Assembly: GCA_964475855.1 (NCBI GenBank)
Contig: CAYZAV010000002.1
Coordinates: 51,933-115,932 of the forward strand
Length of the DNA: 64,000 nucleotides
Direction: 5' to 3'
From: an uncultured Candidatus Saccharibacteria bacterium
GTDB lineage: Bacteria > Patescibacteriota > Minisyncoccia > Minisyncoccales > Staskawiczbacteraceae
Both the position numbers and the translations under genes were made by a program. Below the pieces are notes generated by a model. It was not told the DNA's origin. It saw only the letters and a list, made by a program, of their open reading frames with translations, and ran no database searches. Each line of letters starts with the position of its first letter. The stretch's first letter is position 1. This document shows positions 2,497 to 63,952 of this stretch, one piece after another.

Positions 2497-2685
2497 TTAT
2501 ACTTTCGCTACCGCTTTCATGCATTTAGTGCAGGAAAGAACGCGTTTTCCGTTAGCCAACCGTGTCCACTGTAAATTCGGGTACTTGCGTACTTTTTGGG
2601 TGGGGTTGTATTTTCCCCTCAATTTTACCAGTTGCCAGGCCATGCCTGACTTTTTGCCGCAGACGGCACAAATTTTTGAAGCCAT
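2497..2685 (-). CDS. rpmB: 50S ribosomal protein L28
   Basis: 62 aa, MASKICAVCGKK...NLQWTRL..GKRV.L.CTKC. L28-like length and pattern. Confidence 0.7.
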   Translation of the reverse strand: MASKICAVCGKKSGMAWQLVKLRGKYNPTQKVRKYPNLQWTRLANGKRVLSCTKCMKAVAKV

Positions 2686-6879: not shown

Positions 6880-6883
6880 CTTC

Positions 6884-7060: not shown

Positions 7061-7070
7061 TATGCACCTC

Positions 7071-9966: not shown

Positions 9967-9975
9967 TTCCCTATC

Positions 9976-10344: not shown

Positions 10345-10496
10345 CTACACAAGGGATGGGTCGGAAGGGAAGGATTCCCTTTCGTGTAGGAAAACAGCGA
10401 GCGAAGCGAGCGTTAGAAACCGGGGGTTTCTAAGGAGTGAGCCGGAACCGAAGAGCTAGCCTGAGCGAAGCGAGGGCGATAAGGCGAGCGACGGAG

Positions 10497-10525
10497 TTGA
10501 CATTTCCATTAAAATTTAGTAACCT
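10497..10525 (+). promoter_or_regulatory. Candidate promoter for the rplC operon
   Basis: TTGACA(10497-10502)-17-TAACCT(10520-10525). The -10 is weak (only the TAnnnT positions match). Confidence 0.3.
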
Positions 10526-11245: not shown

Positions 11246-11282
11246 ATACTGGAAATTTCCAATTATCAATTTACAATTTACA

Positions 11283-11912
11283 ATGAAAACGATAGTTTAT
11301 AATCAAGAAGGAAAAGAGGCAGGTGAAGTCACGCTGCCAAAAGAAATATTCCAAGTTCAGATGAACGCTGATTTGGTGCACCAAGTGTTGATTTCTTATT
11401 CGGCCAACAAGCGGCAAGTTTCTGCTCACACTAAAAACCGCGGCGAAGTGCGTGGAGGAGGCCGCAAACCATGGAGGCAGAAAGGAACCGGACGTGCTAG
11501 GGCAGGTTCAACTCGCGGACCGATTTGGAAAGGTGGAGGAGTTTCCGGCGGCCCACGCAATGAAAAAGTATATGCACGTATTATCCCAGTCAAGATGCGT
11601 AAAAAAGCGTTGGCAATGGTATTGTCTGAAAAAGTAAAGAATAATTTATTCGTCATTGTGGATGGCTTGGACATGCAAACGGCAAAAACGAAGTCTATGG
11701 CAACCATGATTAAAAAGTTACCCGTTGCAAATGCCAGCAGATTGGTATTGTATACTACCGGAAAGAACGTATTTTTATCAGCCCGTAATATTGCCAAGAC
11801 AGGCGTAACTGAAATCCGTAATATGAATGTGGCTGATTTGCTCAATTACAAATATGTAGTTTTGAGCAAGGACGAAATTAAAGAAATTGAAAAAATGGTT
11901 AGCATTACATAA
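11283..11912 (+). CDS. rplD: 50S ribosomal protein L4
   Basis: RGGGRKPWRQKGTGRAR motif. Confidence 0.96.
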   Translation: MKTIVYNQEGKEAGEVTLPKEIFQVQMNADLVHQVLISYSANKRQVSAHTKNRGEVRGGGRKPWRQKGTGRARAGSTRGPIWKGGGVSGGPRNEKVYARIIPVKMRKKALAMVLSEKVKNNLFVIVDGLDMQTAKTKSMATMIKKLPVANASRLVLYTTGKNVFLSARNIAKTGVTEIRNMNVADLLNYKYVVLSKDEIKEIEKMVSIT

Positions 11913-13243: not shown

Positions 13244-13576
13244 ATGTCACGAAGTTTACGAAAAGGTCCGTATGTAGACCCAAGGTTGATGCAAAAAGTC
13301 CTCAATGTTCGCAAAGAGGAGAAGGTAATCATCAAAACCTGGGCAAGGCACTCAACGATTTCTCCGGAAATGGTGGGGTATACCTTTGGGGTGCATAACG
13401 GAAAAGAATTTGTGCCGGTCCATATCGGTGAGGACATGGTGGGACACAAATTGGGGGAATTTGCAGCTACTACCAAATTTGGCAGACACGGAGGAAAGAT
13501 GCAGCGTGATTTGGAGACGGGGGCGCAGCAAAAGGAAACAGCTAAGATTGTTGATGCCAAACCAGCTACGAAGTAA
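13244..13576 (+). CDS. rpsS: 30S ribosomal protein S19
   Basis: [21 protein letters not shown]. Confidence 0.96.
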
Positions 13577-13598
13577 CCAGTAACGAGTAATAAGTAAT

Positions 13599-14718: not shown

Positions 14719-15135
14719 ATGAGCTTGATGATGCCCAAAAAAGTCAAACACCGCAAATGGCACCGCGGTAGGACCAAAGGTGTGGAACGACGCGCTTCTG
14801 AATTGAATTTCGGCAGCTTTGGGTTAAAAGCTATGGGGACTCGTTGGATTACCGCCCGCCAGATTGAATCTGCTCGCCGATATATTATCCGATACATGAA
14901 AAAAGGAGGTAAAATTTGGGTTAGGATTTTCCCGGACAAACCTATTACTTCAAAGGGTGAAGAAGTGCCATTGGGAGGAGGAAAAGGTGCTGTGCATCAT
15001 TATGTATATCCGATAAAACCGGGAAGAATTATTTTTGAAATAGACGGACTGAAAGAAGATGTTGCTCGGGAAGCCCTAAAGGGTGCCGGCATGAAATTGC
15101 CAATCAAGACCAAATTTATTAAACGGGAAATTTAG
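14719..15135 (+). CDS. rplP: 50S ribosomal protein L16
   Basis: MMPKKVKHRK... The true start may be ATG 14728. Confidence 0.95.
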   Translation: MSLMMPKKVKHRKWHRGRTKGVERRASELNFGSFGLKAMGTRWITARQIESARRYIIRYMKKGGKIWVRIFPDKPITSKGEEVPLGGGKGAVHHYVYPIKPGRIIFEIDGLKEDVAREALKGAGMKLPIKTKFIKREI

Positions 15136-15136: not shown

Positions 15137-15328
15137 ATGAAAACCGCAGAATTACGGAAAAAAAATACCAAAGAATTGGAAAAATCGGTGGTGGATCTCA
15201 AAAAAAAGTTGAGCGACATCCGGTTTAAGTTTTCCAGCAATCAGATGAAGAACGTGAAAGAATTGAGCAATATCAAAAAAGAAATTGCCCGCAGTTTGAC
15301 TATTATCAACGAATTTACGAATAAATAA
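15137..15328 (+). CDS. rpmC: 50S ribosomal protein L29
   Basis: 63 aa, position between rplP and rpsQ, ELRKKNTKELEK pattern. Confidence 0.9.
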   Translation: MKTAELRKKNTKELEKSVVDLKKKLSDIRFKFSSNQMKNVKELSNIKKEIARSLTIINEFTNK

Positions 15329-15397
15329 CGAATTTGCGAATTAAAGTGTAATTAACGAGTGTATTAGCAAATTCGTAACACATTCGTAAATTCGCTG
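15309..15397. repeat. Word-built inverted repeat (ttcgtaaa/cgaattt words) spanning the rpmC 3' end and spacer
   Basis: acgaatttacgaat...acgaatttgcgaat pairs with gcaaattcgt...attcgtaaattcg. Related to 42563..42660. Confidence 0.6.
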
Positions 15398-15407
15398 ATT
15401 AACTAAC

Positions 15408-17151: not shown

Positions 17152-17541
17152 ATGACAGATCCAATCACAGACATGTTAAACAGGATACGAAACGCCCAGG
17201 CCGTACAAAAGCCGGAGGTTTTAGTCCCTTTTTCAAATTTGAAAAACGAAATTGCCATGATTCTGGCAAAAGAGAATTTCCTGGCCGATGTCAAAAAAAT
17301 GGCCAAGGGGAAGGGGAAAGTGCTAAAAATTACCCTGAAATATGATAATGGAGTTTCAGCGATTGAGGGCTCCAAGCGGGTATCAAAGCCGGGTCAGCGT
17401 ATTTATGTGGGAAATGACAGTATTAAGAAGGTGAAGGGAGGATTTGGCGTTTCCGTCATTTCCACACCAAAAGGATTAATGACGGGGCTGCAGGCAAAAC
17501 AGGCCAAGTTGGGCGGGGAAGTATTACTGGAGGTCTGGTAA
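17152..17541 (+). CDS. rpsH: 30S ribosomal protein S8
   Basis: MTDPITDMLNRIRNA. Confidence 0.96.
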   Translation: MTDPITDMLNRIRNAQAVQKPEVLVPFSNLKNEIAMILAKENFLADVKKMAKGKGKVLKITLKYDNGVSAIEGSKRVSKPGQRIYVGNDSIKKVKGGFGVSVISTPKGLMTGLQAKQAKLGGEVLLEVW

Positions 17542-18149: not shown

Positions 18150-18491
18150 ATGTCATTTAAACAAGAAAAACGGAAAAGGATCCATGGAAGGATCAGGTCT
18201 CGCCTTATGGGAACTGCCATACGTCCGCGGCTTTCGGTATTCAAATCATCAAACCATATGTATGCCCAGCTGATTGATGATGATAGTGCAAAGGTACTGG
18301 TGATGGTTTCTGATATAAAAATGAAAAAAGGAAAAAAAACCGAACACTCCCTTGAAATTGGAAAATTGATTGCCAAAGAGGCATTGGCTAAAAAAATCGA
18401 AACGGTTGTTTTTGACCGTGGTGGTTTCGTATTCCATGGAAGGGTGAAGGCAGTAGCTGATGGTGCGCGCGAAGGCGGACTGAAGTTCTAA
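18150..18491 (+). CDS. rplR: 50S ribosomal protein L18
   Basis: RPRLSVFKSSNHMYAQLIDD...FDRGGFVFHGRVKA. Confidence 0.95.
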   Translation: MSFKQEKRKRIHGRIRSRLMGTAIRPRLSVFKSSNHMYAQLIDDDSAKVLVMVSDIKMKKGKKTEHSLEIGKLIAKEALAKKIETVVFDRGGFVFHGRVKAVADGAREGGLKF

Positions 18492-18529
18492 ATTTATAAT
18501 TATTCTAATTGACCTAATTATTCTAAAAA

Positions 18530-19506: not shown

Positions 19507-19567
19507 CACGTAACATAGAACAGATAACAAATACGTTTTGTTTTATGTTCCATGTTTCATGTTCCAT
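19499..19567. repeat. Word-built inverted repeat (aacat/atgtt heptamers) between rplO and secY
   Basis: cacataacacgtaacatagaacagataacaaa / ttttgttttatgttccatgtttcatgttccatg. Confidence 0.6.
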
Positions 19568-19572
19568 GAAGA

Positions 19573-20850
19573 ATGTGGTACGACAAAATTACGTTATTAT
19601 TTCGCAATAAGGAACTAAGGAATAAATTCGGAATAGTATTATTCCTTTTTTTGGTATTCCGTATCGCCGCCAATGTGCCGATTCCGGGTATTGGCGCTGA
19701 AAGTTTGCGCCGGTTTTTTGAACAAAACCAAGTATTTGGTTTGTTGAATATTTTTTCTGGTGGCGCTTTAAGTAACTTTTCCATTGTGCTATTGGGACTT
19801 GGGCCGTATATTACCTCTACCATTATCTTACAGCTTCTGACCATGATTTTCCCTTCCCTTGAAAAAATGTATAAGGAAGAAGGAGAAGCTGGCCGGCAAA
19901 AGTTCAACCAATATGGTAGGCTTTTGGCCATTCCACTAGCTGCTTTTGAAGGATATGGAATGTTAACCCTTTTCCAGCGACAAGGAGTCATTACCGGGCT
20001 GACCCCGATGATTTTAGTAAGCTCTATTATTACCATTATTGCCGGTTCCATCTTTTTAATGTGGATCGGGGAACTGATTACCGAACAGGGAATGGGAAAC
20101 GGCATTTCACTGCTGATTTTTGCCGGTATTGTCGCCCAGTTACCCATTAATATTTTCCAAACATTTGTTTCGTGGGATCCAAGTAAAATCCCTTCTTATC
20201 TGTTATTCTTTGTGCTTTCGGTGGCTATTATTGCTGCAGTAGTGCTAATTACTGAAGCCCGTCGGAATATTCCGGTTTCTTATGCCAAGCGTGTGCGAGG
20301 GTCAAAAATGTTTGGCGGTCAGTCAACGTATCTGCCGCTTAACGTTAACCCCGCCGGAGTTATCCCTATTATTTTTGCCTTGAGCATCTTATTATTCCCA
20401 GGCATGATTGCCGGATTTTTCGGAGGTGTGCCGGGCATGGTGGGAAACATTGCCACTTCGGTTGCAGCGTTTTTTGCCGATGTGTGGGTGCACGGTATTT
20501 TATACTTTTTGCTGGTTATTTTGTTTACGTATTTTTACACCGCGGTTACCTTTGACCCGAAAGCCATTGCTGAAAATTTACAGAAAATGGGAGGATTTAT
20601 ACCCGGGGTGCGGCCAGGAGAATCAACTACTAAATTTTTAAGCCATATTTTAAACCGCGTATTGTTTACGGGCGCCATTTTTCTTGGCTTAATCGCTGTG
20701 TTACCAACCATTGTTGGCGGACTTACTGGCGTTACCGGATTTGCCTTTTTGATCGGTGGAACTTCTCTGTTGATTGTAGTTTCTGTGGTACTTGATACCA
20801 TACGCCAGGTCAATTCTCAGCTTGAAATGCGGGAATACGATACATTCTAA
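19573..20850 (+). CDS. secY: Preprotein translocase subunit SecY
   Basis: 425 aa polytopic protein, FRIAANVPIPGI, position after rplO. Confidence 0.95.
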   Translation: MWYDKITLLFRNKELRNKFGIVLFLFLVFRIAANVPIPGIGAESLRRFFEQNQVFGLLNIFSGGALSNFSIVLLGLGPYITSTIILQLLTMIFPSLEKMYKEEGEAGRQKFNQYGRLLAIPLAAFEGYGMLTLFQRQGVITGLTPMILVSSIITIIAGSIFLMWIGELITEQGMGNGISLLIFAGIVAQLPINIFQTFVSWDPSKIPSYLLFFVLSVAIIAAVVLITEARRNIPVSYAKRVRGSKMFGGQSTYLPLNVNPAGVIPIIFALSILLFPGMIAGFFGGVPGMVGNIATSVAAFFADVWVHGILYFLLVILFTYFYTAVTFDPKAIAENLQKMGGFIPGVRPGESTTKFLSHILNRVLFTGAIFLGLIAVLPTIVGGLTGVTGFAFLIGGTSLLIVVSVVLDTIRQVNSQLEMREYDTF

Positions 20851-25089: not shown

Positions 25090-26802
25090 ATGAAATCCGC
25101 AGAACTTCGCCAAAAATTCCTGGATTTTTTTGAGAAAAAGGGGCATACAATTGTCTCTAGCGCTTCTTTAATTCCTGCAGAAACGGGAGCTGGGCAAAAG
25201 ACATTATTTATTACGGCGGGAATGCAGCCTTTGATACCGTTTTTATTAGGGGAAACGCATCCCGGGGGCAAGAGAATTGTTAATATTCAAAAATGCTTCA
25301 GGACCATTGATATTGATGAAGTCGGCGATGATACACATAACACTTTTTTCCAAATGTTGGGAAATTGGTCGCTGGGGGACTATTGGAAAAAAGAATCTAT
25401 TTCCTGGAGTTTTGAATTTTTAACGAAAGAATTGAATATTCCAATAGAAAAATTGGCAGTTTCTTGTTTTATTGGTGATGAACATGCGCCAAAAGATAAA
25501 GAGTCCGCTGAAATCTGGGAAAGCTTGGGAGTTACGAAAGAAAGAATCGCTTTTTTGCCAAAAGAGGATAACTGGTGGGGTCCGGTTGGAGAAACCGGTC
25601 CGTGCGGCCCCGACACAGAGATTTTTTATTGGAAAGCAAATGATGTGCCCGTGCCAAAAGAATTTGATTCGACTAATAAAAATTGGGTTGAGATTTGGAA
25701 TAATGTTTTCATGCAATATGTTAAGGATACCAATGGCAACTATGTTTTGGCAGAACAAAAAAATGTAGATACGGGTATGGGCTTTGAAAGGACGCTGGCT
25801 ATTTTGAATGGTTTTGAAAATATATACGAAACAGATTTGTTTGCGCCGGTTATGCATTTATTCCCAGGTCATGTTGATGAACGTAAAAAACGGATTATCG
25901 CCGACCACGCCAGGGCATCGGTATTTTTAATTTCAGATGGGGTGATTCCTTCAAATAAAGACCAAGGATATATATTGCGAAGATTGTTAAGAAGAATGAT
26001 GGTACATATGCGAGGCATTGAGCACGATATCTTTGAGCCGATTAAGAAAAATATAGAAATATACCAAGAAATATATGCTTTAGATGAGGGTAAAATTATA
26101 CCGGTAGTTAAAGAAGAGGCCGAGAAATTTGAAAAAACATTGGCGGCAGGATTAAAAGTGATTGAAAAAATAACCACTATTACCGGCAAAGAAGCTTTTT
26201 TACTCTATGAAACATATGGTTTTCCATTGGAAGTTTTAGAAGAAATACGCGAAGTTGTAAATCGAGAAGATTTTTTTGAAGAGTTAAAAAAACACCAAGA
26301 ATTATCTCGCACTGCTTCTGTGGGAATGTTTAAAGGGGGACTGGCGGATCATGATCCAAAAACTATAACATTGCACACAGCGCACCATTTGCTGTTGGCG
26401 GCTTTGCAGCAACTGTTAGGGTCAGAAGTAAAGCAAAAAGGCAGTAATATTACGCAAGAACGGTTACGGATTGATGTTTCGCTTGGGCGGAAAATTACCA
26501 AAGAAGAATTATTGGAGGTGGAAAATTTGGTTAATGAAAAAATTTCTGGCGCTCTGGATGTGGTAAAAAAAGAAATGTCGCTTTCGGAGGCACAGCAAAT
26601 TGGTGCAGAAATGGAATTTGGTGTAAAATACGGTAATACGGTGTCAGTTTACTTTATAGAAGAAAAAGATGGCACGTCGTTTAGTAAAGAATTTTGCGGC
26701 GGCCCGCATGTAAAAAATACATCGGAAATAGGTAAGTTTAAGATAATAAAAGAAGAAGCTTCTTCGCAGGGGGTGAGGAGGATAAAAGCAATCTTAGAGT
26801 AA
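25090..26802 (+). CDS. alaS: Alanyl-tRNA synthetase, compact form (570 aa, no C-Ala domain)
   Basis: MKSAELRQKFLDFFEKKGH start. Editing motifs HTAHHLL and CGGPHV. Start set at ATG 25090 with TTGCGG-17-TAGTAT-7 nt upstream. Confidence 0.9.
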   Translation: MKSAELRQKFLDFFEKKGHTIVSSASLIPAETGAGQKTLFITAGMQPLIPFLLGETHPGGKRIVNIQKCFRTIDIDEVGDDTHNTFFQMLGNWSLGDYWKKESISWSFEFLTKELNIPIEKLAVSCFIGDEHAPKDKESAEIWESLGVTKERIAFLPKEDNWWGPVGETGPCGPDTEIFYWKANDVPVPKEFDSTNKNWVEIWNNVFMQYVKDTNGNYVLAEQKNVDTGMGFERTLAILNGFENIYETDLFAPVMHLFPGHVDERKKRIIADHARASVFLISDGVIPSNKDQGYILRRLLRRMMVHMRGIEHDIFEPIKKNIEIYQEIYALDEGKIIPVVKEEAEKFEKTLAAGLKVIEKITTITGKEAFLLYETYGFPLEVLEEIREVVNREDFFEELKKHQELSRTASVGMFKGGLADHDPKTITLHTAHHLLLAALQQLLGSEVKQKGSNITQERLRIDVSLGRKITKEELLEVENLVNEKISGALDVVKKEMSLSEAQQIGAEMEFGVKYGNTVSVYFIEEKDGTSFSKEFCGGPHVKNTSEIGKFKIIKEEASSQGVRRIKAILE

Positions 26803-26897
26803 ATTATTCTAATTATACTAATTGCTCTAATTATTCTAACTATTTGGGTATTGGCATTTGATTAGGTCAATTAGAATAATTAGGTTAATTAGAAATT
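26802..26897. repeat. Word-built inverted repeat (ttctaatt words)
   Basis: aattattctaattatactaattgctctaattattctaac pairs with attaggtcaattagaataattaggttaattagaaatt. Confidence 0.6.
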
Positions 26898-30119: not shown

Positions 30120-30180
30120 CATGGAGCACGTGATATGGAACAATTAACCTAAGGTTATGTTTCATGTTTCATGCTTCATG
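30120..30180. repeat. Word-built inverted repeat (catg/gtttcat words) between rpsD and rpoA
   Basis: catggagcacgtgatatggaacaattaacc-taa-ggttatgtttcatgtttcatgcttcatg. Confidence 0.6.
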
Positions 30181-30190
30181 ATTAAAGTAT

Positions 30191-30970
30191 ATGATACCGC
30201 TACCAGTAGCGCCAATTGTAATCAAAAAAGGCAAAAACCAAGCCGTTTTTGAAGTGCAGGGATTGTATCCTGGTTATGGGGTAACCGTGGGAAACACTTT
30301 GCGCAGAGTATTGCTTTCCTCATTGGAGGGCGTAGCTGTTACCGAGGTGAAAATCAAAGGCGTGGCACACGAATTTTCCACCATTGCCGGCGTGCAGGAA
30401 GATGTGATTATGATTTTGTTGAACCTGAAAAATTTAAGGTTTAAAATACACGAAGGCACCACCCAAAAAGTGATACTTTCAGTAAAAGGTGAAAAAGAAG
30501 TGACCGGGGCCGATTTTGCACTTTCACCACAGGTGAAACTGGCGAATCCAGAGCTTCATATTGCCACCATTACTGATAAAAAAACTGAATTGGAAATTGA
30601 GATAAAAATTGAAAAAGGAATTGGGTATGAGCCAAAGGATCATCGGAAAATAAAAAGCACGGAAATTGGAGCGATTATATTGGATGCTATTTTTACACCG
30701 ATTAAAAACGTTAATTTTCAAGTGGAAAGCATGCGTATCGGCGACCGGACCGACTTTGACAAGTTATCACTTCAGATGGAAACCGACGGAACTCTGACCC
30801 CAGAAGAAGCGTTCTACGAAGCGTGCGATATTATCATCAAACACTTCAGTATTATTTTCGAAGGAAAAGGAATGGTAATGCCTGAAGCGATAACAGAAGG
30901 AGGGGAAGAAGAAAAACCGGCCAAAAAAGCAGCTGCCAAGAAAAAAGCGGTTGCTAAGAAAAAGAAATAA
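30191..30970 (+). CDS. rpoA: DNA-directed RNA polymerase alpha subunit, N-terminal domain only (259 aa, Lys-rich tail, no CTD)
   Basis: NTD motifs GNTLRRVLLSS, FTPIKNVNFQVE, RIGDRTDFDKL. Ends ...EEEKPAKKAAAKKKAVAKKKK*. Confidence 0.9.
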   Translation: MIPLPVAPIVIKKGKNQAVFEVQGLYPGYGVTVGNTLRRVLLSSLEGVAVTEVKIKGVAHEFSTIAGVQEDVIMILLNLKNLRFKIHEGTTQKVILSVKGEKEVTGADFALSPQVKLANPELHIATITDKKTELEIEIKIEKGIGYEPKDHRKIKSTEIGAIILDAIFTPIKNVNFQVESMRIGDRTDFDKLSLQMETDGTLTPEEAFYEACDIIIKHFSIIFEGKGMVMPEAITEGGEEEKPAKKAAAKKKAVAKKKK

Positions 30971-30972: not shown

Positions 30973-31066
30973 AATAAGGTATCCCGCGGAAATCAGGCCG
31001 CAAGGTATACGATATAATTAAGACTGATTTCCGAGGTGAATTTACTCACTTCGTTCATAAATTCAA
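30973..31066 (+). repeat. Dispersed ~95-bp leader-proximal element, copy 2 (fills the rpoA stop to rplQ ATG gap)
   Basis: aataaggtatcccgcggaaatcaggccgcaaggtatacgatataattaagactgatttccgaggtgaatttactcacttcgttcataaattcaaATG. Confidence 0.75.
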
Positions 31067-31417
31067 ATGCGAAAAAAGAATAAAGGCAGAAAATTATCAA
31101 GGCTCAAAAACCAACGGGTGGCGGTGTTAAGGACACTGGCAACCAGTCTTTTTTTGCATGAAAAAATAGAAACCACAGAAGCCAAAGCCAAGGAGTTGCG
31201 CATTGTGGCTGAAAAAATGATTACCCGGGCCCGGGAAAATTCCCTCGCCAACCGGCGCGTATTGGCAAAAGAAATAAATCCCGAAATATTAAAAAAACTG
31301 ATGGCTGACATTGCGCCAAGATACGCCACGCGACCGGGTGGATATACTCGGATTATCAAGCTTGGGCCCCGAAAGTCTGACAGCGCCAGAATGGCCATCA
31401 TAGAACTTGTGAAGTAA
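31067..31417 (+). CDS. rplQ: 50S ribosomal protein L17
   Basis: 116 aa, [10 protein letters not shown]...[15 protein letters not shown]. Confidence 0.95.
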
Positions 31418-38280: not shown

Positions 38281-39288
38281 GTGTTTAATAATAAAATTGC
38301 CATTGATCTTGGAACGTGCAATTCTTTGGTGTATGTGCGCGGAAAGGGTGTTGTGTTAAGCGAGCCTTCCGTGGTGGCTGTTTCGCTGTCAGACAACCGG
38401 ATTTTGGCTGTGGGCCAGGCCGCCAAAGAAATGATCGGCCGCACTCCGGCTGACATTAAAGTATATCGCCCATTAAAAGATGGCGTTATTGCTGATTACA
38501 AAGTCACCCAGGCCATGATGCGGCATTTTATTACCAAGGCTTCACCAAATTTCCGTATCTTTAAACCAGAATTGGTTATTTCCGTTCCCGCCGGCATTAC
38601 CTCAACCGAACGCCGCGCAGTTATTGAAGCTGCCATTTCTTCGGGCGCCCGCAGCGCATTTGTGGCCAAAGAACCTATTTTGGCGGCCATTGGCGCGGGT
38701 ATTCCTATTAATTCCTCCAGCGGCCACATGATTATCAACATTGGCGGTGGAACTTCTGAAGTTGCCGTAATTTCGTTGGGTGGCATTGTTACTTCCCGGT
38801 CAGCTCGCGTGGCGGGAGACAAGCTGGACGCAGCCATTGCCGAATATATCAAACGCAAATATAACTTAGCTATTGGTACCCAGTCTGCCGAGGAAATAAA
38901 AATAAAAGTGGGCACGGCTTTACCGCAGAAAGAATTAAAGTTTATGGAAATCCAGGGCCGCGACTTGATTTTGGGCCTGCCACGCAACATTAAAATTTCC
39001 AACAACGAAATTTGCGAAGCGATGACGGATGTGTTGGCTGAAATTGTACAGGTTGCCAAGCACGTATTAAGTGAAACTCCGCCCGAGCTTTCCGCAGACA
39101 TTATGAACAAAGGAATTATTATGTCCGGCGGCGGTAGCTTGCTGCCAAAAATTAATGAATTGGTTGCCCAAAGCACCGGCGTGCCATGCTTTATTGCCGA
39201 AGAACCGTTGCTTTGCGTGATTAAAGGAACAGGAACGGTACTTGAACATTTGGAGGAATACAAGAAAGTGGTGATGTCGAAAAAATAG
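38281..39288 (+). CDS. mreB: Rod-shape protein MreB, paralog 1 (GTG start)
   Basis: IAIDLGTCNSLVYV, actin-fold phosphate motifs, GGGSLL. Confidence 0.92.
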   Translation: MFNNKIAIDLGTCNSLVYVRGKGVVLSEPSVVAVSLSDNRILAVGQAAKEMIGRTPADIKVYRPLKDGVIADYKVTQAMMRHFITKASPNFRIFKPELVISVPAGITSTERRAVIEAAISSGARSAFVAKEPILAAIGAGIPINSSSGHMIINIGGGTSEVAVISLGGIVTSRSARVAGDKLDAAIAEYIKRKYNLAIGTQSAEEIKIKVGTALPQKELKFMEIQGRDLILGLPRNIKISNNEICEAMTDVLAEIVQVAKHVLSETPPELSADIMNKGIIMSGGGSLLPKINELVAQSTGVPCFIAEEPLLCVIKGTGTVLEHLEEYKKVVMSKK

Positions 39289-39321: not shown

Positions 39322-39340
39322 GATGTTGTTTGTTCGATCC

Positions 39341-39517
39341 GCGACAGCATTCGGGTATGAATAGACGCGGTTAATTCCGCCAGCGCGGACCGGTAAAAAA
39401 AAGACTCTGCGAAGAGTCTTTTTTTTACCTATTACCGCTCACCTCTCGGCAATTTTCCCGCTTCGCGGGACCGTGCAAAATTGCCTCCGAGATGCATTCA
39501 TACCCGAATGCTGTCGC
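39341..39517. repeat. 177-bp structured palindromic (MITE-like) element, copy 2
   Basis: Perfect 22-nt terminal inverted repeats gcgacagcattcgggtatgaat / attcatacccgaatgctgtcgc. Same orientation as copy 1. Confidence 0.75.
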
Positions 39518-39523
39518 TACACG

Positions 39524-41359: not shown

Positions 41360-41429
41360 AAAATTTACAATATACAATACACAATATACAAACAAATTTT
41401 GTAAATTGTAGATTGTGTATTGTATATTT
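41360..41429. repeat. Word-built inverted repeat (tacaata heptamers)
   Basis: tacaatacacaat (41372-41384) pairs perfectly with attgtgtattgta (41412-41424). Confidence 0.6.
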
Positions 41430-41433: not shown

Positions 41434-42561
41434 ATGATAATTACTTTGTTGATTGCATTTTTAAGTCTTATTGCCCTCATGATCATCCATGAATTCGGGC
41501 ATTTTATCATTGCTAAAAAATTCGGGGTGAAGGTGGAGGAATTCGGCATTGGATATCCGCCGCGGCTTTTTGGCAAGCAATTTGGCGATACGCTGTATTC
41601 CATAAATTTGGTGCCACTTGGCGCGTTTGTGAAAATTTATGGAGAAGAGGGCGAGGTAGTTTCTGACGTTGATAATTACCGTAGTTTTTCGGGACTTGCC
41701 ATTTACAAGCGTATGTTGATTGTCCTTGGCGGGGTGATTGCGTTTTGGATTGCCAGCATTATTATTTTTTCAGTAATGTTTTTGACCGGCGCCACAATGC
41801 CTGTTGGTGACCAGGATGTGGCCGGATTCACCGATATCACCATCACTATTTCTGAAGTGGCGGAAAATTCCCCAGCTCACGATTCGGGACTCAAAGAGGG
41901 TGATAAGATAGTCAGTGTCCAAGTTGGCCAAGTACGCACGGATATCAAAAAAGTGGCAGATTTTCAGAAAATCGTGCAAGAGAATAAAAGTAAACAAATA
42001 ATCGTAGCCGTTGTGCGTCAAGGGGAAGAACTTTATATTCCATTAATCCCGCGAGTTGAATATCCCGAAGGTCAGGGGCCGACAGGGGTGGTGTTGGAGC
42101 GTCTTGACACTATTATCCAAAAAGCCCCCTGGTATGAAGCTCCGTTCCGTGGAGCCGCGTATTGCTGGAAGGTGACCGTTGATATCACCTATGGCATATT
42201 TTCTTTTTTTGCCAATATCTTCCGGGGACAGGGTGTTCCTTCGGGCGCTGAATTCGCCGGGCCGGTGGGGATTACCATTTTCCTGGCACGCGCAGCAAGT
42301 TACGGAGCAGGATTTTTCCTTTACTTTATCGGGTCTATTTCTGTGCTTTTGGCTATCTTTAATTTACTGCCCATCCCGGCGCTAGACGGGGGGAAGTTAC
42401 TATTTTTAATCATTGAAAAGGTGAAGGGGTCGGCCGTTTCAGTAAAAATAGAGGGTTGGCTGACTATTTTCTTTTTTATTCTATTGATTTCCATGTCGCT
42501 ATTTATTACCATAAAATTTGATTTCCCGCGAGTAATGGAATTTTGGAAAGCAGGGTTGTAA
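41434..42561 (+). CDS. rseP: RIP metalloprotease RseP (M50 with PDZ domain)
   Basis: HEFGHF zinc motif, PDZ-like AENSPAHDSGLKEGDKIVSV, LPIPALDGG. Confidence 0.88.
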   Translation: MIITLLIAFLSLIALMIIHEFGHFIIAKKFGVKVEEFGIGYPPRLFGKQFGDTLYSINLVPLGAFVKIYGEEGEVVSDVDNYRSFSGLAIYKRMLIVLGGVIAFWIASIIIFSVMFLTGATMPVGDQDVAGFTDITITISEVAENSPAHDSGLKEGDKIVSVQVGQVRTDIKKVADFQKIVQENKSKQIIVAVVRQGEELYIPLIPRVEYPEGQGPTGVVLERLDTIIQKAPWYEAPFRGAAYCWKVTVDITYGIFSFFANIFRGQGVPSGAEFAGPVGITIFLARAASYGAGFFLYFIGSISVLLAIFNLLPIPALDGGKLLFLIIEKVKGSAVSVKIEGWLTIFFFILLISMSLFITIKFDFPRVMEFWKAGL

Positions 42562-42562
42562 T

Positions 42563-42660
42563 CAGCGAATTTGCTAATATATTACGAATTTACGAATGTG
42601 GCGAACGAGCGATCACGTAAAGTGTATTCGTAAATTCGTAACTAATTCGTAAATTCGTTG
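42563..42660. repeat. Word-built inverted repeat (ttcgtaaa words), related to 15309..15397
   Basis: cagcgaatttgctaatatattacgaatttacgaatg pairs with tattcgtaaattcgtaactaattcgtaaattcgttg. Confidence 0.6.
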
Positions 42661-42668
42661 ATGATACT

Positions 42669-43916
42669 ATGTTACAGTCAAAATTATTTTATAAATCCCA
42701 GAAAAACAAAACGGGCAATGCGGATTCGGTTTCGCATGATCTTTTGGTGCGCTCAGGATATGTGGATCAACTGATGAGCGGAGTGTATTCTTTTTTACCA
42801 CTAGGGTACCGGGTTTTAAAAAATATTGAAAATATCATTCGTGAAAACATGGAAGCCGTGGGTGGGCAAGAATTATTGTTGCCTGTTTTGCAGCCCAAGG
42901 AAAATTGGCAAAAAACAAACCGGTGGGATACATTGGATATTTTGTTTAAGGTAAAGGGATCTGGAGATAAGGAATATGCCATGGGGCCGACTCATGAGGA
43001 GGTGATTACGCCGTTGGCAAAAAAGATGGTATTTTCTTACCGCGATTTACCGTTTTATGTTTTCCAAATACAAACAAAATTCCGGGATGAATTGCGTGCT
43101 AAATCAGGAATTTTACGGACGCGTGAATTTTTGATGAAAGATTTATATTCCTTCCACACTGCGCAAGCTGATTTGGATGCTTATTATGAAAAATTAGCCA
43201 AAACGTACACTGCTATTTTTAAGGCTTGCGGCATTGGTAAAATAACGTATCGCACGTTAGCGTCGGGGGGTAGTTTTTCAAAATATTCCGATGAATACCA
43301 AATGGTGACAGATGCAGGTGAGGATATTATTTATGTGTGTAAAAAATGTGGCATAGCAATCAATAAGGAAATAAAACATGAAAATATCGCGTGTCCGAAA
43401 TGCCAGTCATCTGAATTCGAAGAAAAAAAATCTATTGAAGTGGGGAATATTTTTAATCTTGGCACGGGATTTTCAAAGCCTTTTGATTTGAAATTTACGG
43501 ACAAGGATGGCCATGACAAACCGGTGTTGATGGGCTGCTATGGCATCGGGCTTGGCAGGCTGATGGGCGCGATTGTGGAGGCAAGCCACGATGATAATGG
43601 GATTATCTGGCCAAAAAGCGTGACACCGTTTTTAGTTCATGTAATCAGCCTGGGTACGGATAAAAAAATTAAGACATCGGCAGAGAAACTTTACAAGAGT
43701 TTACAGGAAAATAATATTCAAGTATTATGGGACGATAGGGAAAACAAAGGTGCCGGTGAAAAGTTTGCTGAATCTGATTTATTAGGCATTCCGTACCGGC
43801 TCGTAATTTCTGAAAAAACACTGGCGGCGGGTAGCGTGGAAATAAAAGAACGCGGGAAGGAGAAAGTGAAACTGATAAAATTGGCAGACGTAATAAAAAG
43901 TATCAATGTTAAATAA
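42669..43916 (+). CDS. proS: Prolyl-tRNA synthetase, short form without the INS editing domain, with a Cys4 insertion
   Basis: Class II motifs. Zinc-ribbon-like CKKCG...CPKC insert. 415 aa. Confidence 0.88.
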   Translation: MLQSKLFYKSQKNKTGNADSVSHDLLVRSGYVDQLMSGVYSFLPLGYRVLKNIENIIRENMEAVGGQELLLPVLQPKENWQKTNRWDTLDILFKVKGSGDKEYAMGPTHEEVITPLAKKMVFSYRDLPFYVFQIQTKFRDELRAKSGILRTREFLMKDLYSFHTAQADLDAYYEKLAKTYTAIFKACGIGKITYRTLASGGSFSKYSDEYQMVTDAGEDIIYVCKKCGIAINKEIKHENIACPKCQSSEFEEKKSIEVGNIFNLGTGFSKPFDLKFTDKDGHDKPVLMGCYGIGLGRLMGAIVEASHDDNGIIWPKSVTPFLVHVISLGTDKKIKTSAEKLYKSLQENNIQVLWDDRENKGAGEKFAESDLLGIPYRLVISEKTLAAGSVEIKERGKEKVKLIKLADVIKSINVK

Positions 43917-44973
43917 AGCAAAAGGACTATTCTCGTTTTTAACCATGGACATGGCCATTGATTTGGGCACGGCCAATTCATTGGTGTATGTAAAAGACCG
44001 GGGTATCATAATTAATGAGCCAAGCGTGGTTGCGGTTAACAATAAAACCGGCCAGATTTTAGCCATCGGTGAAGAAGCCAAAAAAATGGTGGGACGTACT
44101 CCTTCGTATATTACCGCTACTCGACCGTTGGTTAATGGGGTAATTTCCGACTTTGAAGTGACCGAGCAAATGCTCAAATATTTCATTGAAAAGGCCGTGG
44201 CCGGCAGCAAGAAATGGTTTGGCTTTGGTTATATGCCACGGGTTATTATCGGCATTCCATGCGGGGTAACAGAAGTAGAAAGAAAGGCCGTGATTGACGC
44301 GGCTAAAAACGCGGGTGCAAGGAAGGTTTTTTTGATTGAGGAACCGCTGGCTTCTGCCATCGGCGCCAAATTACCCATTAACGAACCGGGTGGGAATTTT
44401 ATTGTAGACATTGGCGGCGGGACCACTGAAGTAGCCGTAATTTCTTTGGGCGGCATTGTCGTTTTCCGTAGTTTGAAAATAGCGGGGGATAAATTAAATG
44501 ATGATATTATCCAGTTTGCCCAAAAAGAGTATAAATTGTTGATTGGCGAACGCACTGCCGAAATGATAAAAATTGCCATTGGCAGCGCCATGCCGCTCAA
44601 AGATAAAAAAGACATGCCTATGCGCGGGCGGAATTTAGTGACGGGGCTGCCCGAAGAAGTGGTGGTCTTTAACGATGATATTCAGCGCGCGTTGGAAAGA
44701 TCTGTCCGTCAAATTGTGACAGCTATTAAAACCACTATTGAAGAAACTCCGCCGGAATTGTTGAGCGATGTGATGACCAATGGAATTTACCTGGCCGGCG
44801 GCGGAAGTTTGCTTAAGGGCTTGGACCAGCTTATTGCCCGTGAAACCAAGATGCCATGCCAAATCATTGATGACCCGCTGACCTCTGTGGTGCGGGGAAG
44901 TGGCATTACCCTGGAAAACACTGAAGTCTTGGCCGGATTACTGGCAAAAGACGAGGAATTATTTCTATCATAA
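43906..44973 (+). CDS. mreB: Rod-shape protein MreB, paralog 2
   Basis: GLFSFLTMDMAIDLGTANSLVYV. Overlaps the proS stop by 11 nt. Confidence 0.92.
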   Translation: MLNKAKGLFSFLTMDMAIDLGTANSLVYVKDRGIIINEPSVVAVNNKTGQILAIGEEAKKMVGRTPSYITATRPLVNGVISDFEVTEQMLKYFIEKAVAGSKKWFGFGYMPRVIIGIPCGVTEVERKAVIDAAKNAGARKVFLIEEPLASAIGAKLPINEPGGNFIVDIGGGTTEVAVISLGGIVVFRSLKIAGDKLNDDIIQFAQKEYKLLIGERTAEMIKIAIGSAMPLKDKKDMPMRGRNLVTGLPEEVVVFNDDIQRALERSVRQIVTAIKTTIEETPPELLSDVMTNGIYLAGGGSLLKGLDQLIARETKMPCQIIDDPLTSVVRGSGITLENTEVLAGLLAKDEELFLS

Positions 44974-45071: not shown

Positions 45072-45356
45072 ATGATTTCAAAAGAAGACGTACAGCATAT
45101 TGCCAAGTTGGCGCGATTGGAACTGGGTCAGCAAGAAGCGATAAAAATGCAGCAGGATATGTCGGCGATTTTAGATTATTTTGATTTGTTGAAAAAAGCG
45201 CCAAAAGTTACAAAGGTTACAAAAGTGACAAAGGTAAAAAATAATGGATTGCGCGACGATAAGGTGGGGCAACAAAATAGTGCTTTGGCGGGAGAACTAA
45301 TCAATGCCGCGCCGGATAAAAAGGATGGATATGTCAAAGTTAAGGCAATACTATAA
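45072..45356 (+). CDS. gatC: Glu/Asp-tRNA amidotransferase subunit C (contains a KVTKVTKVTKV repeat)
   Basis: 94 aa, VQHIAKLARLEL...ILDYFD..., precedes gatA. Confidence 0.88.
   Translation: MISKEDVQHIAKLARLELGQQEAIKMQQDMSAILDYFDLLKKAPKVTKVTKVTKVKNNGLRDDKVGQQNSALAGELINAAPDKKDGYVKVKAIL
45207..45233 (+). repeat. Three tandem in-frame 9-bp units (same family) inside gatC
   Basis: gttacaaag gttacaaaa gtgacaaag, translated (K)VTKVTKVTK. Confidence 0.8.
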
Positions 45357-47466: not shown

Positions 47467-47574
47467 TTACCTTAGAAATCCAACGCCCACCGAAAATGCC
47501 ACCATGCTGATTGCCACTAGGCTGATGAGGGCTACCCAAACGCCTTTAAGTATCTTTTTTTGGTTAAATTTCAT
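47467..47574 (-). CDS. Possible 35-aa small membrane protein
   Basis: My translation: MKFNQKKILKGVWVALISLVAISMVAFSVGVGFLR. Its ATG abuts the dispersed element exactly as at rpmB and rplQ. Confidence 0.3.
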   Translation of the reverse strand: MKFNQKKILKGVWVALISLVAISMVAFSVGVGFLR

Positions 47575-47745
47575 GAATTTATGAACGAAGTGAATAAATT
47601 CACCTCGGAAATCAGGCTTAATTATATCGTATACCTTGCGGCCTGATTTCCGCTGGATACCTTATTCGGAAATCAGGCTTAATTATATCGTATACCTTGC
47701 GGCCTGATTTACGCGGGATACCTTATTTTCTCGCAGGATACCTTT
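47575..47745 (-). repeat. Dispersed leader-proximal element, copy 3, with a tandem 61-bp duplication
   Basis: Units 47606-47666 and 47667-47727 differ at 2 positions. A partial third ggatacctttatt box follows. Confidence 0.75.
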
Positions 47746-47766
47746 ATTGTTTAATATTACTTTTTT

Positions 47767-50750: not shown

Positions 50751-51665
50751 ATGCTTACCAATTTTAAACGGGTAGTAAACTTTGCACTGGTTGATTTTCA
50801 TCGTAACAAGGGCATGTCCGTGGCCGCTATTTTTGTGCTGACCATTACCATTTTATTGGTGACGGGATTATTTTTTTTGCAGGGTATTAACCATTACCTG
50901 ATCCAAAGCCTGCAAAACAAAATTGACATCACGGCATATTTTCAAGAAAACACTTCAGAGGAAGATATCTTGGGTGTGCGGGAAGAACTGATTAAAGATG
51001 CTCCGGAAATAAAAAACATTGAGTATGTTTCGCGCGAAGATGCGCTGGCAAATTTTAACGAAAAGCATAAAGACAATCCTGTTTTTTCCCAGGCACTTAG
51101 TGAGGTGGGGGACAATCCGTTTTTACCATCACTAAACATTACCACCAGCGGCACTGCCAATGATTACGAACAAGTGGCAAAAACGTTGGAGCAGGAAAAA
51201 TTCAGCCCATTCATAGAAAAGGTTGATTTTTCGCAGAAAAAGGATACTATAGAGAAAGTATTTTCGCTTACCTCAAGCGTAAATCGGGTGGGTATTAGTT
51301 TGGGGTTAGTGCTGATATTGATTGTTATCTTGGTGGTCTTTAACACCATAAAACTGGTAGTTGATGCTTCGCGCGAAGAAATCGCCACCCAGCGCATTGT
51401 GGGGGCTTCCAGCTGGTTTGTGCGCGCGCCGTTTGTGATTGAGGGGGCGCTGTTTGGGGCCATTGCCTTTATCCTTTGTTTTTTCATGGCCCTGGCCGTT
51501 TGCTACTTTTTATCGCCCATATTAGAGTTGATTATGCCAGGTTTTTCCCTGTTTTCCTATTTCCTTTCCAATATGCTGCTATTGATCGCCATCCAGTTTG
51601 GGGTAGGGGTAGGGCTAGGCGTAGTAGCAAGTTTTATTGTGGTGAGGAAATATTTGAAAGCGTAA
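50751..51665 (+). CDS. ftsX: Cell division permease-like protein FtsX
   Basis: 304 aa, 4 TM with a large periplasmic loop; follows ftsE. Confidence 0.85.
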   Translation: MLTNFKRVVNFALVDFHRNKGMSVAAIFVLTITILLVTGLFFLQGINHYLIQSLQNKIDITAYFQENTSEEDILGVREELIKDAPEIKNIEYVSREDALANFNEKHKDNPVFSQALSEVGDNPFLPSLNITTSGTANDYEQVAKTLEQEKFSPFIEKVDFSQKKDTIEKVFSLTSSVNRVGISLGLVLILIVILVVFNTIKLVVDASREEIATQRIVGASSWFVRAPFVIEGALFGAIAFILCFFMALAVCYFLSPILELIMPGFSLFSYFLSNMLLLIAIQFGVGVGLGVVASFIVVRKYLKA

Positions 51666-51673
51666 TAATATAT

Positions 51674-51752
51674 GTGACAAAAGTAGCAAAGGAAGCAGAA
51701 GATACAAAGGCCTTTGAGCCATCTGTATCCTTTGTTACGTTTGAAACTTTTT
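51674..51752. repeat. Hairpin built from GTKRCAAAG-type 9-mers
   Basis: gtgacaaaa gtagcaaag gaagcagaa gatacaaag pairs with cctttgagccatctgtatcctttgttacgtttgaaac. Confidence 0.55.
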
Positions 51753-62440: not shown

Positions 62441-63952
62441 ATGGCAAAGCCCAAGAAAAAAAAGAAACTAGTGCTTGCACGAAAAAAACCGGTAAAAAAA
62501 CCGAAAAAAGTTTTAGTAAAGAAAAAACCGATTACCAAGAGAATAAAAGCCAAGACCTTCCGCGGAGTTTCGCGTAAAATTCAGATTGATTCCGCGCCGG
62601 TAGCAGCCTTTCCGGCGGAGGCATTTTTCAAGGCGAAAATAAAAGTAATTGGCATTGGCGGGGGAGGTGGGTCTATTGTTTCCGAAATTGGCAGGTCTTT
62701 GAACAAGGCCACATTTGTGGTGGCGGATACTGATGAACGCGCGTTTAAAAAACGCCAGGGCATCAAACAGTTTTTATTCGGCCAGGAATTGACACATGGT
62801 TTGGGTACCGGATTAAACACCGACTTGGCACAGCGGGCCGCTGAAAGTGAAAAAGAAAATATCGCTAAATTATTTGACGGCCAGGATATTGTTATTTTTA
62901 TCGCCTGTTTGGGCGGAGGATTAGGAAGTGGTGCCACCCAAATATTCGCCGAGGCGGCCAAAGATTTCGGGGGAATTACCTTTGGTATTTTTACGCTGCC
63001 ATTTAAATTTGAAGGCAAAAACAAGCAAAAAATCGCAGCCAAGGCGTTGCGGGAACTACGTAAATCACTTAATGTTTCCATTACTATTCCCAACGAGCGT
63101 ATTTTTAAAATCATCCAGGAAAACACGGCCATTACTGATGCGTTCAGTACGGTTAACCGCAGCCTGATAGAATCGTTGGAAAGTTTGATAGATTTGATTT
63201 ACAATCCCGGTGTCATTAATATTGACTTCGCCGATCTGCGCGCTATTTTAAAGGGACGGGGGAATTTGGCGTTTTTAAATACGGCCGAGGCTTCCGGGGC
63301 TAATAGGGCGGATACCATCATTCATGAAATTTTGCATAACCCCCTATACCAAAGTAATAATTTTTCCGCCGAAAAAGTGCTATTTAACATTGCGAGCGGG
63401 GGAAATTTAAGCATGTTTGAGGTGGATAAAATAAGCCGGGTCATTTCTGAACATAACCAGTCCGCCAAGATTATTTTCGGGATTTCCAAAGACAATTCTC
63501 TGAAAAATAAAATCAAGACGACGCTGCTCATGACGGGGGCACCGCTTGGGGTGGAGCCCGATGCTACAAAGGTTACAAAGGTTGCAAAGGTGGCAGAGGT
63601 CGCAAAGGCTCCGGAAGCTACAAAGGTGACAAAGGCTACAAAAGTGGCAAAGACCACAAAGGTGGCAAAGGTGGTCTCGCCTTCGCCTAAGGCTTCGGCG
63701 AAACAAAGAAAGAAAAAAGTGGTGCCGGCGTCAAAAACCCCACCGCTTCAAAATGTTCCCGTTTTTTCCAATGTGTACGAGCCGGCCGAAAATTCGCGTA
63801 AATTGAGCATTGTTGAGCCACCACAGAAAAAAGCCATCAGGCGCACAGCATTGGAAGTGAAAAAAGCCGAAGAAATACAAGAACAAAGGCAATCCGATCA
63901 GGAAAAAGAGTGGGAAATTCCAGCATTTTTAAGAAAAATAAAGATCAAATAA
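62441..63952 (+). CDS. ftsZ: Cell division protein FtsZ with a ~60-aa Lys-rich N-terminal extension and a repeat-built C-terminal linker
   Basis: GIGGGGGS, ACLGGGLGSGA tubulin-signature region. C-terminal peptide EWEIPAFLRK. Confidence 0.9.
   Translation: MAKPKKKKKLVLARKKPVKKPKKVLVKKKPITKRIKAKTFRGVSRKIQIDSAPVAAFPAEAFFKAKIKVIGIGGGGGSIVSEIGRSLNKATFVVADTDERAFKKRQGIKQFLFGQELTHGLGTGLNTDLAQRAAESEKENIAKLFDGQDIVIFIACLGGGLGSGATQIFAEAAKDFGGITFGIFTLPFKFEGKNKQKIAAKALRELRKSLNVSITIPNERIFKIIQENTAITDAFSTVNRSLIESLESLIDLIYNPGVINIDFADLRAILKGRGNLAFLNTAEASGANRADTIIHEILHNPLYQSNNFSAEKVLFNIASGGNLSMFEVDKISRVISEHNQSAKIIFGISKDNSLKNKIKTTLLMTGAPLGVEPDATKVTKVAKVAEVAKAPEATKVTKATKVAKTTKVAKVVSPSPKASAKQRKKKVVPASKTPPLQNVPVFSNVYEPAENSRKLSIVEPPQKKAIRRTALEVKKAEEIQEQRQSDQEKEWEIPAFLRKIKIK
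63563..63670 (+). repeat. Twelve tandem in-frame 9-bp units (GTKRCAAAG family) inside ftsZ
   Basis: gctacaaag gttacaaag gttgcaaag gtggcagag gtcgcaaag gctccggaa gctacaaag gtgacaaag gctacaaaa gtggcaaag accacaaag gtggcaaag. Confidence 0.85.

Follow-up and report, generated by a model that had tools for sequence, protein, structure and literature searches.

A dispersed repeat of about 92 nt directly before start codons in a Parcubacteria genome, possibly a mobile 5'-leader module

Introduction

Within a 64,000-nt stretch of contig CAYZAV010000002.1 (assembly GCA_964475855.1; the whole stretch is referred to here as the window, and element positions are given in its coordinates), a repeated element of about 92 nt runs up to the start codons of three genes, namely rplQ, a probable rpmB and a gene encoding a 35-aa membrane peptide. 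This raises the question of what kind of sequence the element is and how it came to occupy such a position. Homologues of L17 and S12 place the genome in the Parcubacteria near Candidatus Staskawiczbacteria; bacteria of the Candidate Phyla Radiation (CPR), including the Parcubacteria, have tiny genomes. The reading which we favor, at a probability of roughly 0.55, is that of a lineage-restricted mobile 5'-leader or intercistronic module, a non-autonomous dispersed repeat which is co-transcribed and folded as RNA.

Results

The element is present at 2686-2777 (minus strand), 30973-31064 (plus strand) and 47575-47666 (minus strand), the third locus extending to 47747 through a tandem copy of 61 nt followed by a partial box. 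These three loci, which had been put forward in a preliminary description of the window, are confirmed in the sequence, and the motif counts lie far above chance: the box AATAAGGTATCCCGCG yields six matches at up to three mismatches (0.54 expected; none of 100 shuffles reaches six), a match at 43241 being unrelated, and for the loop motif and the CGAGGTGAAT motif about zero matches are expected. Among themselves, the copies in the window are 82-97% identical; as repeat pairs with 94-nt arms, those at rplQ and the 35-aa gene agree at 97% and those at rpmB and rplQ at 82%, and the rpmB-locus copy is the most diverged (82-84% to the other copies). The flanking coding sequences are not homologous, and BLAST similarity is confined to the element itself.

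Read toward the gene, the element consists of AATAAGGTATCC-NGCG-N, the 5' arm of a first hairpin, P1 (AAATYAGGC), a 23-nt loop (CNCAAGGTATACNATNTANTTAA), the P1 3' arm (GCCTRATTT), a single base, a second hairpin, P2 (5' arm CGAGGTGA, 6-nt loop, TCRCTYYG), and an 11-nt G-poor tail ending in AATTC, which is followed by ATG. In the RNA form, the invariant 5' box reads AAGGUAUCC.GCG, the P2 arms read CGAGGUGA/UCRCUUCG, and the unpaired G-poor tail, 11-14 nt long across copies, presents the AUG. The duplicated locus comprises the following parts, listed together with the two further copies.

47575..47666, minus strand: full element copy (5' box, P1, P2, tail), touching the ATG of the 35-aa gene; sequence and covariance model R1 (119.9 bits, E=3.9e-29)
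47667..47727, minus strand: tandem second copy of the 61-nt unit of 5' box and P1, without P2 and tail; Tandem Repeats Finder (TRF) and a partial R1 match (57.8 bits), two differences from the proximal unit
47728..47747, minus strand: partial third unit, ATAAAGGTATCCTGCG plus AGAA, cut off where the P1 5' arm begins; sequence and box scan
47641..47649, minus strand: 5' arm of P1 in the proximal unit, AAATCAGGC; seen in the consensus structure and the pair counts
47618-47640, minus strand: P1 loop of the proximal unit, 23 nt, with the second AAGGTAT box and TATAAT
47609..47617, minus strand: 3' arm of P1 in the proximal unit, GCCTGATTT; seen in the consensus structure and the pair counts
47600..47607, minus strand: P2 5' arm CGAGGTGA, the same in all copies; consensus structure and identities
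47586..47593, minus strand: P2 3' arm TCACTTCG; consensus structure and pair counts
47575-47585, minus strand: G-poor 11-nt tail, followed by ATG
30973..31064, plus strand: element copy between the rpoA stop (30970) and the rplQ ATG (31067), flanked by AG and AA; R1, 114.9 bits
2686..2777, minus strand: element copy touching the ATG of the L28-like gene; R1, 107.9 bits

The tandem duplication with two differences and a partial third box, as described earlier, is recovered by TRF at 47605-47727 (period 61, 2.0 copies, 96% matches), with the truncated third box at 47732-47747. Other details had to be adjusted. The copies at rpmB and the 35-aa gene do abut the start codon, while that at rplQ stops 2 nt short of it (AATTC-AA-ATG); similarly, the loop TATAAT is missing from the rpmB-locus copy, where TATACT/TTTACT takes its place.

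Comparison with related genomes bears directly on whether the element belongs to the genes it precedes. In relatives whose L17 is 78-85% identical, 4-6 nt separate the rpoA stop from the rplQ ATG and the element is absent, where the window reads TAA-AG-(92 nt)-AA-ATG. In L033, the S12 of which is 98% identical, the spacer between rpmB and the M50 peptidase gene measures 54 nt, reads TACAAT-N6-ATG and lacks the element. L030 and L031 encode MRINKKKILKGIWIALISMVGISMVAFSVGVGFLR, the same 35-aa membrane peptide, divergently from divIC across a 71-nt spacer, again with no element; because the same gene occurs there without it, the site at the 35-aa gene was formerly empty. The rpsL-rpsG spacer of the window is 6 nt long and holds no element, and the metagenome contig L009 (S7 83% identical; host about 75% identical to this genome at the nucleotide level in rpsG/rpsL) carries a copy touching the ATG of rpsG. 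Two more copies outside the window touch the ATG of yidC, following rnpA (L006), and that of a 117-aa open reading frame (ORF) of no known function (L004, which equals L008). Judged from these alignments, the element is shown to be an insertion and not an ancestral leader, as site occupancy differs between genomes.

A cis-regulatory RNA would be expected at orthologous positions before genes of related function, and the sites at rplQ, rpmB, rpsG and the 35-aa gene are empty in one or another of the genomes compared. It is thus very improbable that the element is an autoregulatory ribosomal protein leader or a riboswitch, sensing a ribosomal protein or a metabolite. Three of the seven downstream genes do encode ribosomal proteins (L17, L28-like and S7), and the RNA is structured; however, the element is missing from the same genes in close relatives (rplQ, rpmB), it also precedes yidC, the membrane-peptide gene and a gene of no known function, and the near-identity of the copies within one genome indicates a recent spread. 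In addition, no Rfam family matches: only tRNAs reach the gathering score in the window, and at E<=10 nothing is found on the full copy at 47575-47666, the array being overlapped only by two chance-level matches (E=5.8-9.1, far below the gathering score) in its outermost units, at 47718-47747. The shared autoregulatory leader, one of the options of the preliminary description, is accordingly abandoned.

Between hosts, identity amounts to 84-92% for copies of the element and to 97-100% for the P1 unit, as compared to only about 75% in ribosomal protein genes. Since its identity exceeds that of these genes, the element would be either strongly constrained or recently exchanged, and it appears to be conserved beyond neutral expectation. 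Searching with R1 recovered the three loci of the window and no diverged copies beyond them in about 80 kb of this genome; in relatives, about 70 kb of non-redundant sequence gave none. An exact-pattern scan of GTDB representative genomes yielded no true copy, its two chance matches lying within Firmicutes coding repeats, and viral contigs gave no match to the element. As expected for a multi-copy repeat, independent short-read (Logan) assemblies of this organism stop within the element, at position 1 of L012/L013 and L027/L028, corresponding to the rplQ and rpmB loci.

Of the seven independent loci, in the window and in further genomes, six have the end of the element 0-2 nt from a following ATG, each of these six in sense orientation. 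Three copies lie inside operons, and native -10-like boxes directly precede two others. Where the context is that of divergent promoters (three loci), the spacer before insertion would have measured about 54-95 nt, and we estimate the chance of a sense-oriented end 0-2 nt from the ATG at about 0.03-0.04 per such locus; for the operon-internal copies the position is nearly forced and the orientation free. For all six gene-adjacent copies to be both flush and in sense, the estimated chance is of the order of 1e-5 or less. GC skew is positive over the whole window, so that the three copies, running minus, plus and minus, all lie on one replichore; because both orientations occur under this uniformly positive skew, the orientation of the element follows the gene and not the replication strand.

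This arrangement also has a bearing on the possibility that the element is a purely selfish hairpin. In such a case, P1, P2 and the boxes would be recognition structures for an enzyme acting on single-stranded DNA, such as an HUH/RAYT-like transposase (RAYT, REP-associated tyrosine transposase; REP, repetitive extragenic palindrome) or a tyrosine recombinase, which targets the ATG, and the RNA would be functionless and merely tolerated. We regard this as doubtful, though deserving serious attention. Site occupancy that varies between genomes, the tandem amplification of the unit of box and P1 and the near-identity of P1 units across hosts which are about 75% identical in their genes are all in line with it, as is the fact that folded single-stranded DNA also tolerates G-T pairs. 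On the other hand, orientation tracks the gene. The flanks have only the start codon in common and contain no other conserved target motif of 4-5 nt; the ends AATAAGGTATCC... and ...CATCAATTC lack complementarity, hence there are no terminal inverted repeats; and no repeated flank indicative of a target duplication is visible at any of the seven loci, the empty sites compared being those of other species. P1 and P2 are dissimilar, unlike the left and right ends of IS200/IS605 elements, and no transposase occurs in the Pfam gene tables, which were read for most of about 80 kb around the window, the segment 41359-52446 of the window having no table. Finally, an insertion before essential genes must preserve their expression, implying at least a selected compatibility of the RNA.

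The structure was assessed on seven distinct copies, a number at which support is moderate. RNAalifold recovers both P1, 9 bp with a 23-nt loop, and P2, 8 bp, the latter having been missed in the preliminary description. The 12-bp stem reported there does exist, its conserved part being the 9 bp of P1, which can be extended to 12 bp only in some copies. Over the seven copies, 97.5% of cells are paired as compared to 25-48% in slid-register controls, and the hairpins are conserved in the further copies as well. P1 contains three compensatory cells at two pairs (C-G to U-A, C-G to G-C, A-U to U-A). Within the window this covariation is limited to one pair, the change from C-G to U-A in the rpmB-locus copy which had already been recognized, and the L003 copy (AAATGTGGC/GCCACATTT) adds two compensatory pairs. 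In P2, five cells show wobble-compatible one-sided changes at three pairs (G-C/G-U, U-A/U-G), and there is one A-C mismatch. The covariation score was reached by none of 500 shuffles. Because the G-U pairs of P2 would become A-C mismatches on the opposite strand, the predicted fold belongs to the sense strand. An outer helix, GAAUAAG/UUUAUUC, was predicted for one copy, is not conserved in the rest and was rejected.

Every copy has the same unpaired 5' box and P2 5' arm, and most of the P1 loop is likewise unchanged, whereas variation occurs in the stems and in the P2 loop. This hints that some partner may recognize the invariant parts in a sequence-specific manner. One form that this could take is a shared operator or regulon, in which the two AAGGTAT boxes of an element (four and a half in the array) bind one trans-acting protein, as DNA or as RNA. 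The invariance of the boxes in all copies and their multiplication at the third locus would fit; but from one related genome to another the targets are different genes, their functions are mixed, and no candidate regulator came to light. Moreover, the boxes lie 28 nt apart in each unit and 33 nt apart where units of the array join, neither of which corresponds to whole helical turns. We therefore consider a shared operator to be rather improbable.

A further possibility is that the element is a mobile promoter, with the TAnnnT of the P1 loop as -10 box and a start in the P1 3' arm giving a leader of about 48 nt which includes P2. At least one TAnnnT (TATAAT, TATACT or TATATT) is kept in the loop of every copy, in spite of lying where the loop varies most. 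Moreover, the element falls under the operational definition of a putative mobile promoter (PMP), that is, an alignment of 50 nt or longer and no less than 80% identity upstream of non-homologous genes in one genome (PMC3488235), given its 94-nt arms at 97% and 82% identity and its non-homologous flanking genes. However, no copy in the window contains a -35/-10 pair, even though the genome uses canonical TTGACA/TATAAT promoters (rpsL); the three copies in operons need no promoter, and two others directly follow native -10-like boxes. Also, a start in the P1 3' arm leaves the covariation of P1 and the invariant 5' box unexplained. A mobile promoter is thus unlikely, a -10-only promoter within the P1 loop being weakly suggested by the sequence, and the element is probably neither a promoter nor a ribosomal protein operator. 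Of the mobile promoter/leader module proposed in the preliminary description, the mobile leader is retained, considering the empty orthologous sites, the differing genes, the sense-oriented and flush placement and the conserved hairpins, whereas the promoter part is weak.

Several observations weigh against a mobile RNA leader. It is the distribution of the copies that suggests mobility, terminal inverted repeats, target duplication and transposase not having been found. The higher conservation of the unpaired boxes and loop as compared to the stems would fit recognition by a protein, e.g. a mobilizing enzyme, at least as well as folding of an RNA, and it likewise agrees with a selfish hairpin. 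The opening energy of the region from -12 to +12 is below the shuffle mean in five of six loci, none being individually significant; as it is only weakly better than in shuffles, insulation of the start site was rejected as a function. The copy on L003, which follows gpmA, is succeeded by ATA and other repeats and by no gene. Lastly, the number of independent loci is seven, and these come from an exact-pattern scan that misses diverged copies.

Discussion

If the element is indeed a mobile leader module, it would have been inserted ahead of unrelated genes, between their start codon and a native promoter or upstream cistron, thereby replacing a coupling spacer of 4-6 nt or a leaderless-type junction. 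Transcription would then run through it and make it a 5' leader or an intercistronic RNA, since the copies at rpmB and the 35-aa gene have native -10-like boxes 6-12 nt upstream and other copies are located inside operons. With its two closed hairpins and the unpaired, G-poor tail after them, the leader may keep the start region single-stranded, in agreement with the weak trend in accessibility. As it is placed before essential genes, the RNA of the element should be compatible with start-site selection or might even supply it. Most likely, the folded, self-contained leader would act post-transcriptionally on mRNA processing or stability, and we infer that the element functions at the RNA level.

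We know of no mechanism that has been established for the choice of start codons on polycistronic mRNAs in Parcubacteria and other CPR bacteria. The host is poor in Shine-Dalgarno (SD) sequences, with SD-like 4-mers at -9 to -12 in about nine of 72 genes. TAnnnT hexamers ending at -7 to -9 from the ATG are enriched (21 of 72 genes), examples of such -10 boxes being those of rpsL, the M50 peptidase gene and the genes at 23553 and 59662, and this enrichment suggests that leaderless or very-short-leader mRNAs may be widespread. Canonical promoters are present as well, e.g. TTGACA-17-TAAGAT-7-ATG at rpsL. Several potential translation signals within the element were considered. A leaderless promoter in the tail was dismissed, as in no copy does a TAnnnT end at -7 to -9 from the ATG. 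GAGGUGA is unlikely to serve as ribosome-binding site, being located about 25 nt from the AUG and paired in P2, in an SD-poor host and in a group in which the anti-SD motif is missing in about half of the members (Parcubacteria; PMC9297842). A 'split RBS' (ribosome-binding site) helix UGAAUU/AAUUCA is possible; it is invariant across copies, with one pair lost in L009. An upstream ORF of ten codons, starting from the GTG within GAGGTGA, was rejected because substitutions fall mostly at first codon positions and the position of the stop is not conserved.

Among known systems, the element belongs with small co-transcribed dispersed repeats and putative mobile promoters, and it is set apart by its start-flush, sense-only placement in a CPR genome. 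PMPs, introduced by Matus-Garcia, Nijveen and van Passel in 2012 (PMC3488235), are defined operationally, neither a structure nor a mechanism being specified for them; the Treponema brennaborense family, conserved from about -5 of the start codon to -120 (PMC3488235), is similar in placement. In contrast to a PMP, the element has no complete promoter, is flush with the ATG, contains two covarying hairpins and also occurs inside operons. The Correia/NEMIS repeats of Neisseria are co-transcribed miniature inverted-repeat transposable elements (MITEs), whose RNA hairpins affect the fate of the mRNA, NEMIS being cleaved by RNase III (PMC2229807). Like them, the element is small, non-autonomous, dispersed and located next to genes. 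However, Correia repeats have terminal inverted repeats, a TA target duplication and an integration host factor (IHF) site and occur in either orientation, while in the element inverted repeats are lacking, a duplication is not detectable, the orientation is always the same and the distance to the ATG is fixed. With MITEs in general it shares multiple dispersed copies and presence/absence polymorphism between genomes, and not the terminal inverted repeats. REPs and the related BIMEs and REPINs resemble it as short imperfect palindromes, dispersed between genes, sometimes clustered or in tandem, and forming hairpins in mRNA. Yet REPs are 20-40 nt long, lie mostly after genes, often as inverted pairs, have a conserved GTAG-type head and are mobilized by RAYT, whereas the element is 92 nt long, has two unlike hairpins, occurs only before genes and forms direct, not inverted, tandems; in the Pfam gene tables mentioned above no RAYT gene was present. 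Elements derived from IS200/IS605 have a conserved 4-5 nt target at one end and an orientation tied to the replication strand, neither of which is seen here. From its sequence features, the element would therefore not be a classical MITE, REP or IS200/IS605 derivative. Two further identities were rejected: compared with integron attC sites the arms are, by inspection, arranged opposite to RYYYAAC...GTTRRRY; and in contrast to TIGR arrays, the 61-nt unit is repeated about 2.3 times without spacer variation, and no Tas (Nop-domain) protein was found in the Pfam tables read.

Stabilizers located in the 5' untranslated region (5' UTR), such as the 5'-terminal stem-loop of ompA and STAB-SD of Bacillus cry3A, place a hairpin near the 5' end of the mRNA and are single-gene leaders, not dispersed. 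The combination of a hairpin and an SD-like GAGGUGA about 25 nt upstream of the AUG is reminiscent of these, but in the element this motif is paired in P2, and its role as SD sequence is doubtful as many Parcubacteria have no anti-SD (PMC9297842).

The findings are of interest in several respects. A structured RNA module can evidently sit directly before essential genes (L17, S7, L28-like, YidC) without killing them, and an active small repeat family is documented in a lineage usually thought to be repeat-poor. Together with the hairpin families of its relatives, the element provides concrete cis-acting sequences to probe initiation, mRNA processing and operon insulation. In practical terms, it fragments assemblies made from short reads and leads to spurious ORFs or wrongly called starts. 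Spurious N-terminal extensions do arise from it, e.g. in the 241-aa 'M50' ORF starting at 2747 of the window.

Other hairpin repeats and neighboring genes

Hairpins unrelated to the element were observed at comparable positions. In the window, the low-complexity palindromes AATTCGTAA, TGTTTCATG, TAATTATTCTAA and CAATTTACAA form stable spacer hairpins (-19 to -39 kcal/mol), which end 5-13 nt before the ATGs of rpsQ, rpoA and the genes at 42669 and 26906. In the element-free relative L032, the spacers of the ribosomal protein operon are filled with palindromes, (AGTAACC)n/(GGTTACN)n, AATTTGAAATTT and GATATTA..GCGCGAGCCC; the (AGTAACC)n palindromes end 1 nt before the ATG of rpsG and about 6 nt before the true ATG of the S19 gene, and a different palindrome lies upstream of rpmB. 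The gene caller placed the starts of rpsS, rplC and rplB in L032 downstream of the true ATGs. The positions are as follows.

15301-15401 and 42559-42666; 19543-19576 and 30155-30188; 18494-18526 and 26798-26894; 11253-11283 and 41369-41429: palindrome families of the window
10412-10507, 15304-15387 and 18166-18254, also 9018-9115, 9848-9998, 13471-13597, 14801-14925 and 17217-17330: palindrome sites of L032

As the window and L032 hold unrelated hairpin families at the same position, the space before start codons is a site that hairpins have repeatedly colonized in this clade. Thus, it might be speculated, as a rather remote idea, that the element and the unrelated palindromes of its relatives are start-codon-directed cassettes adapted to translation without SD pairing. 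Integration would then be specific to the ATG boundary, or only flush insertions would survive, and the folded RNA would mark or process the transcript in such a way that ribosomes could initiate where the 5' end is unstructured, very short or leaderless. If true, this would be a bacterial counterpart of the transcript 'punctuation' in organelles.

In the window, the copies follow rpoA or lie in the spacers shared with the divergent M50 and divIC genes, and the genes downstream encode L17, the L28-like protein and the 35-aa peptide. These genes and their putative native promoters are:

31067..31417, plus strand: rplQ (L17); Pfam PF01196, E=1.4e-36
2497..2685, minus strand: probable rpmB, a divergent L28 of 62 aa; TIGR00009, E=1.2e-3 over the full length, below cut-off; orthologues in L032/L033
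2790..2819, minus strand: TTGAAA-18-TAGTAT, promoter-like by consensus match only, with 12 nt between its end and the rpmB-locus copy downstream of it
47467..47574, minus strand: 35-aa membrane-peptide gene, conserved in relatives that lack the element
47754..47759, minus strand: -10-like TAATAT, 6 nt upstream of the array; sequence and alignment with the TGGTATAAA region of relatives

The earlier naming of rpmB is probably right, the match to L28 being full-length but weak, as the gene scores below the Pfam and NCBIfam cut-offs; it was missed by the gene caller of the public collection. Because L030 and L031 encode the same peptide, the 35-aa ORF is considered a real, conserved gene, and the TAATAT at 47754..47759 is a candidate native promoter which may transcribe the array as a 5' UTR.

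Some further repeats and genes were noted. On the OBEQ01 contigs, another short repeat, (G)AACACTTATGCCCGAC / GGGCACTTATGCCCGAC, with a hairpin GGGCA..TGCCC, recurs beside the element (L003 1-180, L009 1285-1310). A MITE-like element of about 180-190 nt is present twice in the window, at 6883-7062 after fusA and at 39340-39519 after mreB, the two copies being 96% identical; in contrast to the start-codon element it has true terminal inverted repeats of about 22 nt (GCGACAGCATYCGGGTATGAAT / ATTCATACCCGRATGCTGTCGC) and contains an internal terminator-like palindrome (GGCAAAAAAAAGACTCT...AGAGTCTTTTTTTTGCC). RpoA, encoded at 30191-30970 on the plus strand, has 259 aa and no match to the C-terminal domain, and a separate 131-aa ORF at 7163-7558 on the minus strand carries this alpha-CTD (C-terminal domain; PF03118); the alpha subunit of RNA polymerase thus looks as if it were split. 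Two MreB-like paralogues at 38281-39288 and 43906-44973, about 5.7 kb apart, share nucleotide blocks of 70-83% identity. In the C-terminal linker of FtsZ (63548-63680), a 9-nt periodic repeat, ACAAAGGTK, encodes ATKV/AKV, and related repeats are found at 45192-45252 and 51659-51710.

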